The notes under the pieces: generated by a model
Told to the model about the DNA's origin: nothing
Database searches by the model: none
Seen by the model: only the letters and a program-made list of their open reading frames with translations
Position numbers and translations under genes: made by a program
In this document: piece by piece, positions 1 through 2,031 of the stretch
Layout of the letters: every line of letters starts with the position of its first letter
Position numbering within the stretch: the first letter of the stretch is position 1
Origin: an uncultured archaeon
Lineage (GTDB): Archaea; Iainarchaeota; Iainarchaeia; Iainarchaeales; CSSED10-239
Direction: 5' to 3'
DNA length: 6,626 nucleotides
NCBI GenBank assembly: GCA_964468895.1
Contig: CAYXWT010000040.1
Coordinates: 1-6,626, forward strand

Positions 1-2031
1 TTTTTCTTTTTCTAATAATTTATTCCAATTGTCATCAATATGTTTTTGAATTATTTTAATTTCTTTTTTATTTTTAAGTACTTCTTTAAATTTAGTTTGT
101 GTACTTAGAAACTCTTCAATAGGAATCTTATTTTTAGGTTTATAATTAATTTTATATTTTCCATTTTCAACTTCATAAAGTGGCCAAAAATTACTTTCAG
201 TTGCTTTTTTACTAATTTCAATAGTTCTATTACTTGCTGCTTTCATATTAGTAGGACATGCAGCATAAACTATTATTACTGCTGGTCCAGGAGTAGCAAA
301 TGCTTTTTCAGCTTTATTATAAAGATCAAGTATATTTCCTGGATTAGCTTGAGCTACATAAGGTATATTGTGAGCAATAGCAATTTCAGTTAAGTTTTTT
401 GAAAACTTTGTTTTCCCAAAGCTTTCAGTTCCAGAAGGTGTTGTTGTAGTGTTAGATCCATAAGGTGTAGCTGAACTTCTTTGATTGCCTGTATTATGAA
501 CCACAATTCCGTTGGCAATAAAATTATGTTCTCCTTCTACTCTTAAATCTAAAGTTTGTTCAATACCTTTTGGAATTATGTTTTTTATTTTTCTAATTTC
601 AAAATAGTTATTGTTTATTAAATAATTTTGATATTTATATTGGGAGTTGTATTTTTTTGTATTCCAAGAATATTTTTTACTAAAACAAATTGAATAACAT
701 GTACTATCTTTTAGTAATTTCCTGTAAACCACTAATGTTCCTTTTTTTTTAGTTTGGTTAGTTATTTTTCCAACCCTATAATCCATTGTTTGTAATAAAA
801 GTCTAAATCTTTCAATTAAATCTTTACTTGCTGAAACAAATCTCATACTGTCTTTTTTTCCTTTGTATATATACCCATCAGACATTATTAATCCTTTGAT
901 AAATGCTTCTTTTTGTTCTTTTGGAATAGTAAAAACCCATGACGGAATAGTTTTGTTTTTTGCACCTTGTTTAAAACCTAGAGAGTTAATAAATTTAGAT
1001 ATTTTTACTGAATTATAATAGATGTAGTATTTATCTAAGCTTATATTTTCTTGATTAAATATTTTTTGATGTATTTTTATAAGTTTTTCTCTTTCTTTTG
1101 TATTTTCTGGAAGTGCAAACCCAATTTCTCCTCTTTTTTCTCTAATCCATCCATCCCCAACATATAATCCTAACCAAATCATAAGATCTAAAGATGATTT
1201 TTCTGGTATTATTACTTTGTTAATATTATTTACTTTGTAATCTCCTTTTTTAGGTAGTTTTAGTTTTTTGAATTTATAATCCTCACAATTATCATATAAT
1301 TTTTTCATAGTTACAATTTCATCATTTATTTTTAATTTAGAAACGGTTTTCCAAATAAATTCATTTTCTTTACCCCTTTTATTTCTTTTAAGTGTTAAAA
1401 AAGGATGATTAGAAGTTGCTTTTATGTTTTGATGAATTGTTTCTATTTCAAATACTTTTTTTATCCCATTATCAAATACACCTGAACATTTTTTAAGAAC
1501 TGGTTGGTAGGTTTTTTGATCAAATGTCCACACATTTTCTCCATTTTTGATTTCAGTTATTTGTTTAAGTCCATTTTCACTCATTATTAATGTATCAGTA
1601 GATAGGCAATTCATATATCCTTCATTGTTATAACAAACATATACAAAGTCATGACCCCGTTCAAGTGCCCCTGATAAACTTTGTAATCCAATATCAAAAG
1701 ATCCACCATCACCACCAAAAGCTAAAAATTTAATTTTCTTTTTTATTTTACCTTGTTTTTTAAGTGCTTTATATGCTGTTTCAATTCCAGAAATAGTTGC
1801 AGCAGCATTAGCAAAAACTGAGTGCATCCAAGGCACATTCCAAGAAGTATATGGATAAATAGTAGTAGTTACTTCTGCACAACTTGTTGCACTTGTAACA
1901 ACTACATCATCATTACTTGCAGCCATAACTGTTCTAAGAATAATACCTATTGGACAACCAGCACAAGTTCTGTGTCCAGAAACCAATCTATTTTGTTTAT
2001 TTATTTTTAAAGCTAATTCTTTATAATTCAT
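1..2031 (-). CDS. porB: 2-oxoacid (pyruvate):ferredoxin oxidoreductase beta subunit (TPP-binding), intein-containing precursor; 3' end runs off the window
   Basis: ATG at 2031..2029. My manual translation of this frame is open down to position 1 (677 codons). It is probably absent from the ORF track because it has no in-window stop. N-extein (1609..2031, 141 aa): [27 protein letters not shown]...[37 protein letters not shown]. It carries the GDG-x25-NN TPP motif at 1624..1713. C-extein (1..492, 164 aa): [21 protein letters not shown]...[16 protein letters not shown]...[10 protein letters not shown]...[12 protein letters not shown]. The joined exteins total 305 aa so far, a typical PorB length. 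The gene follows porA by 29 nt, the expected GDAB position. Confidence 0.9.
   Translation of the reverse strand, partial: [677 protein letters not shown]
493..1608 (-). mobile_element. Full-length intein (372 aa) with an embedded LAGLIDADG homing endonuclease, inserted in frame in porB
   Basis: Block A: [13 protein letters not shown] starts with the Cys1 codon at 1608..1606, directly after extein YMN. Block B: ATSNHPF (TxxH) at 1399..1416. LAGLIDADG motif 1: [10 protein letters not shown] at 1144..1173. Motif 2: [12 protein letters not shown] at 868..903. Blocks F/[21 protein letters not shown] end at 493. The next residue is +1 Thr (490..492). The length is exactly 1116 nt with no stop codon, and both junctions are in the porB frame. 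Confidence 0.93.
664..1206 (-). other. LAGLIDADG homing-endonuclease domain of the intein (approximate boundaries)
   Basis: There are two LAGLIDADG-type helices, ...[11 protein letters not shown]... and ...[13 protein letters not shown]..., about 90 aa apart. Each keeps the acidic residue before the final Gly. The domain lies between the N- and C-terminal splicing lobes. Boundaries are estimated by eye, not from an alignment. Confidence 0.75.

Follow-up and report, generated by a model that had tools for sequence, protein, structure and literature searches.

A predicted class 1 LAGLIDADG intein in the cofactor loop of a probable pyruvate:ferredoxin oxidoreductase beta subunit of an uncultured archaeon

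A stretch of 6,626 nucleotides from an uncultured archaeon (contig CAYXWT010000040.1 of assembly GCA_964468895.1, positions 1 to 6,626; hereafter the window, to the whole length of which all coordinates refer) carries a porB gene, coding for the beta subunit of what is most likely a pyruvate:ferredoxin oxidoreductase (POR), that is interrupted in frame by a 372-residue insert. We read the insert, with a probability of about 0.93, as a class 1 intein with a LAGLIDADG homing endonuclease, which would free itself from the PorB precursor by protein splicing and would enter intein-free copies of the gene by homing. The reading frame that begins at ATG 2031 on the minus strand, where all por genes of the window lie, runs through 677 codons with no stop up to base 1, the edge of the window; since a near-identical protein in the database (P0001) has 681 residues, about four codons and the stop should lie beyond this edge. 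Precursor residues 142-513, encoded by 1608..493 on the minus strand, form the insert (CLSTDTLI...NGIVVHN), which is preceded by Asn (codon 1611..1609) and followed by Thr (492..490), and the parts of the precursor, including the thiamine diphosphate (TPP) motifs of its N-terminal host segment, are laid out as follows.

1..2031, minus strand: porB precursor open reading frame (ORF), open from ATG 2031; best NCBIfam match PorB NF008819; P0001 has 681 aa
1609..2031, minus strand: N-extein, 141 aa; Pfam TPP_enzyme_C, 4.6e-14; aligns to PDB 9bt4_C, 5c4i_C and 1b0p
1954..1965, 1705..1713 and 1609..1632, minus strand: N-extein motifs CxGC, GDG and YNNEGYMN, respectively, with Cys51 in addition; coordinates checked
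493..1608, minus strand: predicted intein, 372 aa; Intein_splicing, LAGLIDADG_3, TIGR01445, TIGR01443, AlphaFold and Foldseek, and a 1116-bp absence in the intein-free locus L001
1297..1608, minus strand: N-terminal half of the splicing (Hint) domain, intein residues 1-104, with Cys1; beta strands of the model at 7-101; aligns to the Npu and Ssp DnaB mini-inteins
1396..1425, minus strand: block B of the intein, with T65 and H68
619..1296, minus strand: LAGLIDADG homing-endonuclease domain, intein residues ~105-330; LAGLIDADG_3, helix and strand pattern of the model, matches to PI-PkoII, PI-SceI and PI-PfuI
1147..1185, minus strand: LAGLIDADG motif 1 (Asp152), a sequence motif
871..903, minus strand: LAGLIDADG motif 2 (FIKGLIMSD244GY), a sequence motif
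493..618, minus strand: C-terminal part of the splicing domain, intein residues 331-372; TIGR01443; aligns to the C-termini of DnaB and DnaX mini-inteins
493..561, minus strand: blocks F and G of the intein, with D354, H361, H371 and N372
1..492, minus strand: C-extein, 164 aa within the window, with Thr+1 at 490..492 and the fourth cluster cysteine at 256..258; PorB profile positions 134-296; gap-free with 9bt4_C

Searched alone, the insert matches Pfam Intein_splicing with E = 2.6e-18 (66.7 bits against a cut-off of 35.8) and Pfam LAGLIDADG_3 with E = 2.9e-11 (43.9 bits against 22.5), and it exceeds the cut-offs of the N-terminal and C-terminal intein models of NCBIfam, TIGR01445 and TIGR01443 (28.8 against 15.6 bits for the latter). 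The two Pfam E-values, taken together with the splitting of the PorB profile into two pieces, place the insert far beyond chance. When it is compared by sequence with solved structures, its middle aligns with PI-PkoII, and the splicing-domain halves on either side of it align with the mini-inteins of Npu and Ssp DnaB. An AlphaFold model of the intein, built with 15 homologues, has a mean predicted local distance difference test score (pLDDT) of 88 and a predicted template modelling score (pTM) of 0.87, and in it beta strands at residues 7-101 and 336-371 flank a domain of helices and strands. The best matches of this model among PDB structures, as found by Foldseek over its full length, are all inteins that bear an endonuclease, namely TliVMA, PhoVMA, PI-PkoII, PI-SceI and PI-PfuI, with TliVMA at the top (E = 1.9e-21, TM 0.72).

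The first residue, Cys1 (codon 1608..1606), is the nucleophile, block B contains the Thr-x-x-His signature as T65-S-N-H68, and the C-terminus reads ...VVH371-N372 and is followed by Thr at the +1 position. Each of the two LAGLIDADG motifs carries a catalytic acidic residue, Asp152 and Asp244, which are retained in 176 and 177, respectively, of 180 distinct copies of the intein; C1, T65, H68, D354, H361, H371 and N372 are invariant in all 180. The insert is, as judged from its sequence and predicted fold, a class 1 intein with a double-motif LAGLIDADG endonuclease, of standard mechanism and architecture, and it carries every such feature that sequence and fold can test. A further cysteine, Cys41 (1486..1488), is also invariant throughout the 180 distinct copies, with variable neighbours, and the residue aligned with it in the Ssp DnaB intein is Val; a disulfide between Cys41 and Cys1 is possible.

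Against the PorB profile NF008819 the precursor matches in two pieces (residues 8-142 to profile positions 6-134, and residues 513-676 to 134-296); the joined product of 305 aa matches in a single piece (8-301 to 6-297, E = 3.8e-105). Across the junction, the joined product can also be aligned with no gap to three solved structures, those of a four-subunit POR (beta subunit, 9bt4_C; E = 7e-74; ...CVDNEAYMNTGIQRSSGTPF), of oxalate oxidoreductase (beta subunit, 5c4i_C), and of the Desulfovibrio africanus PFOR (DaPFOR; 1b0p; ...EVYSNTGGQSSKATP). Both the TPP/Mg motif GDG-x(26)-NN and the YxNTGxQ loop are present, in the form G107-D108-G109...N135-N136-E-G-Y-M-N141/T-G-N-Q, in which, as in all sequences below, a slash marks the insertion point. 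In the 1b0p alignment this point falls between the equivalents of DaPFOR Asn996 and Thr997, with an offset of one residue between chain index and residue number, as given by the numbering of the cluster cysteines of that enzyme (Cys812, Cys815, Cys840 and Cys1071). Asn996 lines the pyruvate pocket of DaPFOR and rotates upon pyruvate binding, and its equivalent in Sulfolobus influences substrate specificity; the Mg/TPP motif includes GDG and the Asn that here precedes the cut by five residues, and the CxGC motif is a ligand of the proximal cluster (PMC5020499). All four proximal [4Fe-4S] cysteines are present, as C23-A-G-C26, C51 and, in the spliced protein, C220, with C220 lying in a significant stretch of the 1b0p alignment and C23/C26 and C51 in a stretch below threshold. 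The Mg ligands and three of the cluster cysteines are located in the N-extein and the fourth cysteine in the C-extein. Among the four-subunit 2-oxoacid:ferredoxin oxidoreductases the host is most likely a pyruvate:ferredoxin oxidoreductase, pyruvate being favored as the substrate because of the Asn aligned with DaPFOR Asn996 and because of an adjoining acetyl-CoA synthetase gene.

A sequence-only reading of the window had proposed that a full-size LAGLIDADG intein occupies 493-1608, that it sits in the TPP-site loop of PorB, and that removal of 493..1608 restores the conserved loop. The Pfam and NCBIfam models, AlphaFold and Foldseek agree with the first of these proposals, the por operon and the gap-free alignments to solved PORs bear out the second, and the one-piece NF008819 match together with the same alignments confirms the third; the Desulfovibrio PFOR sequence quoted there in support is indeed the one found in 1b0p at the aligned position. 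The length of 305 aa given there for the spliced product holds for the part inside the window, and the full length is about 309 aa.

Intein-free porB alleles at the same codon, for which a search had been suggested in that reading, do exist. The protein P0121 (311 aa) is 91% identical to the spliced product and free of the intein, and the genes of its contig (L001) follow the order seen in the window, at 82-87% nucleotide identity. In the nucleotide alignment, window 4250..1620 corresponds to L001 778..3428 and window 498..1 to L001 3434..3931, the difference between the two amounting to exactly 1116 bp at a codon boundary, and the intein-free site of L001 reads GATTTTGTTTATGTTTGTTATAATAACGAAGCTTACCAAAAT/ACAGGGAACCAAAGAAGTTCAGCTACACCTTATGG. 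The host allele nearest to that of the window is an intein-free one (91% extein identity), and the nearest intein-bearing alleles have only ~75% identity in the extein, which implies either a recent gain or a precise loss.

The allele is widespread. The matches listed in a search with the precursor were all intein-bearing and those listed in one with the exteins all intein-free, and genomes were scanned with one genome per species, 80 loci being fetched. At least 120 protein clusters (at 90% identity) contain the PorB intein, and 329 species-level genomes contain a full-length relative of it. The 120 best precursor matches are, without exception, PorB proteins ~672-690 aa long in which the identical site holds an intein of 365-372 aa, and the flanks Y-x-N/C-L-S...V-V-H-N/T-G-x-Q recur in all 120 of them as well as in 79 of the 80 fetched genome loci. 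The closest named carriers, at 77% intein identity, are Candidatus (Ca.) Forterrea multitransposorum and an Iainarchaeum bin, both of the Diapherotrites group of DPANN, and such relatives are consistent with the low G+C content of the window (24%). By record label, the archaeal carriers include Woese-, Aenigmat-, Micr- and Nanoarchaeota, Bathyarchaeia and Hadesarchaea, and the bacterial ones many Omnitrophota (among them a single-cell genome), Parcubacteria/Patescibacteria, Aerophobetes and Cloacimonadota. In an exhaustive search of 1.84 billion representative proteins, PorB copies were at least 53% identical to the intein of the window and all others at most 42%, a gap from which the PorB inteins are taken to form a site-specific allele family of their own. 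Outside PorB, the nearest inteins reside in SufB (32-35%), and next come those of a T4-type portal protein, of ClpP and of a methyltransferase. In databases, PorB genes of ~675 aa are often named 'hypothetical protein', and the pipeline of the Joint Genome Institute (JGI) names some such proteins 'POR beta subunit/intein/homing endonuclease'.

The site occupied in the window is one of at least three at which inteins enter PorB, all of them within the 34-residue GDG...NN...N cofactor motif. The second lies inside the GDG motif itself (FAGDGG/CYIPG...TNMN/SFDIG) and holds a 343-aa intein with a LAGLIDADG_3 match of 4.6e-12, the nearest non-PorB relatives of which include inteins of proteins of the UDP-glucuronate decarboxylase type. 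Both this site and the one studied here are occupied in a 1023-aa precursor (P0008, locus L006, JBAYPN010000010.1), and in P0241 the second-site intein occurs alone, with the studied site empty, an arrangement that the length of P0242 (630 aa) would also fit. The third site lies 8 residues upstream of the studied one, in L013 (CAYHAE010000023.1), where a 555-aa intein with Cys at +1 (LYV/CLPPE...VISN/CYDNEAYMN; Intein_splicing 3.4e-11, LAGLIDADG_3 1.8e-15) shares a single gene with an intein at the studied site.

The ratio of nonsynonymous to synonymous substitution rates (dN/dS), taken only from pairs unsaturated at synonymous sites, is 0.05-0.18 in the splicing domain, 0.07-0.17 in the endonuclease domain and 0.035-0.08 in the exteins; both domains of the intein are under purifying selection. 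One protein with an intein at the same site, P0292 (607 aa), has lost both LAGLIDADG aspartates to replacement (IFIASGQ, TNTNGV) in an intein of ~314 aa and appears to represent the stage of the homing cycle in which the endonuclease decays; decayed copies of this kind are as that cycle predicts. The histories of intein and host gene also diverge in places. Of 76 sequences, only 22 have one and the same nearest neighbor in the intein and in the extein; a locus labeled Cloacimonadota (L049) and one of Nanoarchaeia (L069) have inteins that are 80% identical and exteins that are 47% identical; in two Omnitrophota loci (L020 and L081) the exteins reach 85% and the inteins 58%; and in the pairs L036/L038 and L026/L035 the synonymous divergence is much lower in the intein than in the exteins. 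Such conflict between the intein and host-gene trees argues for an occasional horizontal movement of the intein, apparently also between distant hosts. Viruses were considered as a vector and set aside, as a scan of IMG/VR and of GenBank phages gave only distant inteins (~23-25% identity) in other phage proteins.

In the mechanism that we propose, the 681-aa precursor would be translated as a whole, after which Cys1 would attack the Asn141-Cys1 peptide bond, Thr+1 would receive the N-extein, and the terminal Asn372 would cyclize and free the intein, leaving the exteins joined by a normal peptide bond in a PorB of ~309 aa. The continuous loop would exist only in the spliced protein, and cofactor loading and POR activity should therefore need splicing; that the binding of TPP, Mg and the cluster would depend on it is reasonable in view of the position of the insert and the division of the ligands between the two exteins. 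The freed intein would then act as a site-specific DNA endonuclease, cutting intein-free porB at the conserved sequence and being copied into it by repair. Homing of this kind would explain the patchy presence of the intein in close relatives, the constant codon of insertion, and the occasional moves between distant hosts, including those between archaea and bacteria. Indirect support for cleavage of the intein-free allele comes from the patchy presence, the empty allele of L001, the conflict between intein and extein, and the purifying selection.

Several points weigh against this reading or some part of it. The splicing, the endonuclease activity and the dependence of POR on splicing are all inferred, and the porB ORF is clipped by the edge of the window, a full-length near-identical protein being P0001. 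As regards the specificity for pyruvate, the joined product scores 351 bits against NF008819, which is below the equivalog cut-off of NCBI (405), and 290 bits against the VOR-beta model. Most of the taxon labels come from metagenome bins and may be wrong, and two bacterial contigs were checked by their gene context: on the Omnitrophota contig (L085) DnaX and RecR adjoin porGDAB, and the Parcubacteria contig (L084, JBDRPV010000079.1) carries bacterial-type PheS/PheT, GlmS and GlmM. Mean identity is 62% among the inteins and 54% among the exteins, in loci picked by intein similarity, which inflates this comparison and leaves the discordant pairs unaffected; for the same reason, the idea that an intein more conserved than its host is a sign of function was down-weighted. 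The G+C content of the intein tracks that of the host (r = 0.88-0.90 over a range of 24-51%, loci L004-L085) and averages, in these loci, 8.5 points below that of the flanking exteins of the same gene. The two trees, of inteins and of exteins, share their local clades, and that of the window (WIN, L004-L012) is monophyletic in both. The G+C tracking and the shared clades together point to long residence and mostly vertical inheritance, with homing perhaps rare or extinct in this lineage.

The last of these points lead to the alternative that has to be taken most seriously, although we consider it doubtful, in which splicing is intact, the endonuclease no longer homes in this lineage, and the intein persists as a vertically inherited passenger, kept because an imprecise loss would destroy an essential loop, with selection on the endonuclease domain serving folding or splicing. 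The G+C agreement over 24-51%, the window clade shared by both trees, the lack of any copy in the phage and IMG/VR collections as a possible vector, and decayed endonucleases such as that of P0292 would all fit such a history. Both aspartates and their motifs are, however, intact in the window copy and in ~98% of the 180 copies, the endonuclease domain evolves at a dN/dS of 0.07-0.17, and some pairs show a clear conflict between intein and extein; in addition, the fact that the closest host allele is intein-free and the intein-bearing ones much more distant implies a recent gain or a precise loss.

A second alternative, which we regard as improbable, is that the intein has taken on the role of a post-translational switch, its splicing being blocked under oxidizing or cofactor-poor conditions, e.g. 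by a Cys1-Cys41 disulfide, so that POR would mature only when it can work. Redox-controlled splicing is known in other archaeal inteins. Here the intein is conserved as much as the host enzyme, Cys41 is invariant alongside Cys1 in the 180 copies, and the enzyme that hosts it is an oxygen-labile Fe-S protein which, in Ca. Forterrea, belongs to the one route found to yield ATP (PMC5905446). Many close relatives are nonetheless intein-free, which makes the intein dispensable, and selfish persistence with an active endonuclease would explain its conservation equally well. Should it be true, it would amount to an on/off control of POR, and thereby of what feeds the only recognized ATP-yielding route, in organisms of reduced genome, and it would account for the retention of the intein, as well conserved as its host, by hundreds of archaea and bacteria of ultra-small size. 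That the insert is splicing-dead, a native non-intein domain or an assembly chimera, in a porB copy that would be nonfunctional or misassembled, can practically be dismissed: the clipping of the ORF at the window edge leaves room for it, but all splicing residues are intact in a frame open over 677 codons, data from many laboratories show the same architecture in 329 genomes and at least 120 independent protein clusters, purifying selection acts on the insert, and its boundaries match the empty allele to the base.

The reading of the insert as a splicing and homing intein in porB is set in a por operon with the gene order porG-porD-porA-porB on the minus strand, as assigned by Pfam POR, Fer4, POR_N with PFOR_II, and TPP_enzyme_C, respectively. 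The remaining genes with assigned functions are the following.

2061..3254, minus strand: porA, alpha subunit, 397 aa; POR_N 3.6e-70, PFOR_II 1.1e-26
3268..3567, minus strand: porD, delta subunit, ferredoxin-like with 2x[4Fe-4S], 99 aa; Fer4, Fer4_21
3591..4145, minus strand: porG, gamma subunit, 184 aa; Pfam POR 1.9e-32
5311..6626, plus strand: ADP-forming acetyl-CoA synthetase, N-terminal 438 aa, running off the window; Succ_CoA_lig 4.1e-46, CoA_binding_2 4.8e-18, Ligase_CoA_2

POR and the acetyl-CoA synthetase, which uses the acetyl-CoA made by POR, constitute a route from pyruvate via acetyl-CoA to acetate and ATP. In Ca. Forterrea, the conversion of pyruvate to acetyl-CoA and acetate is the sole energy (ATP)-yielding step identified (PMC5905446). 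Upstream of porG lie two ORFs with no Pfam match, 4196..4501 (101 aa) and 4504..5169 (221 aa), both on the minus strand. The region of the 221-aa ORF has 71% nucleotide identity to a stretch of L001 that contains a 225-aa gene; most of the 101-aa ORF (~4251..4513) lies in the gap between two aligned blocks, and nothing in the aligned parts of L001 corresponds to it. A duplication or repeat as the origin of this ORF (4196-4501) was considered and rejected, since neither meaningful repeats nor any protein similarity were found, and scans of the window for tRNAs and Rfam families gave nothing. A different gene setting is seen on the Parcubacteria contig mentioned above, where the intein-bearing porB (6244-8274) stands alone between a gene resembling phosphoglucosamine mutase and a DUF4352 gene; the fetched stretch (~6 kb upstream, where the contig ends, and 10 kb downstream) has no gene call for porG, porD or porA, unlike the archaeal and Omnitrophota loci.

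For annotation, it follows that PorB genes of ~675 aa in DPANN, Omnitrophota and Patescibacteria are to be read as a POR beta subunit plus an intein. The finding adds an enzyme of central metabolism that uses TPP and Fe-S clusters to the range of intein hosts, with an allele common to ultra-small archaea and bacteria of the same anoxic habitats, and, since the histories of intein and host gene conflict, the allele is usable as a tracer of gene flow across domains. The three sites in one motif offer a natural case of competition between neighboring inteins. Because the energy metabolism of the nearest named relative would depend on a splicing step, the question of whether inteins regulate their hosts should be testable here. 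With 329 species in two domains, host-like conservation, a position in the cofactor and substrate loop of an oxygen-sensitive enzyme, and three clustered sites, PorB makes a good system for study, even if the existence of such an intein will not surprise specialists.

The sequence-only reading had also supposed that the allele would be new. No paper on an intein in POR, PorB or any 2-oxoacid:ferredoxin oxidoreductase was found in a search of the literature, which did not extend to InBase or InterPro; the supposition holds to that extent, but the allele itself turned out to be abundant (at least 120 clusters, 329 genomes) and labeled as an intein by JGI. The hosts surveyed in 2015 are mostly replication and ATP-binding proteins, and the words pyruvate, ferredoxin and thiamine are absent from the main text of that survey (PMC4760082). 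The genome paper on Ca. Forterrea describes POR as central to its metabolism and makes no mention of an intein (PMC5905446), and further candidate genome papers are likewise devoid of a POR intein.

Compared with inteins of known structure, the PorB intein resembles TliVMA and PhoVMA (7qsu, 7qss, 7qst), PI-PkoII (2cw7), PI-SceI (1vde) and PI-PfuI (1dq3) in having a splicing domain that is split around a double-motif LAGLIDADG endonuclease, and it shares with them Cys1, the TxxH of block B, the terminal His-Asn, and a +1 residue with a hydroxyl or thiol group. The Foldseek E-values against these five range from 1.9e-21 to 1e-12, and the query-normalized TM-scores from 0.52 to 0.74. It differs from them in that the sequence identity is only 12-19%, in that the +1 residue of PorB is Thr, and in its host, as theirs are V-ATPase, DNA polymerase and ribonucleotide reductase rather than a TPP/Fe-S oxidoreductase. 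By sequence, the solved structures that come nearest to the splicing domain are those of the DnaB inteins (Npu 4o1r, Ssp 1mi8; NCBIfam PRK07773 region), the match spanning block B (KATxNHxFLT) and blocks F and G (DLxVxGxHNFxANxIxVHN); the solved DnaB forms are, however, mini-inteins without an endonuclease, in another host protein and at another site. The inteins of SufB, a protein of Fe-S cluster assembly, are, in the exhaustive search above, the nearest full-length relatives outside PorB, with 32-35% identity over residues 1-372 and the same architecture, and they differ in host and target sequence. The intein model for Tes, the tetraether lipid synthase (NF045703), matches the PorB intein weakly (5.8e-08). 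Archaeal inteins of metabolic enzymes, such as that of Tes, are like the PorB intein in that they reside in nonreplicative hosts, within conserved active-site or cofactor motifs, and again the host is a different one; intein hosts in Methanocaldococcus include phosphoenolpyruvate synthase, GlmS and UDP-glucose dehydrogenase. Set beside all of these systems, what is new here is the host gene and the insertion site; the type of element is ordinary, and its sequences were already public and annotated by JGI.

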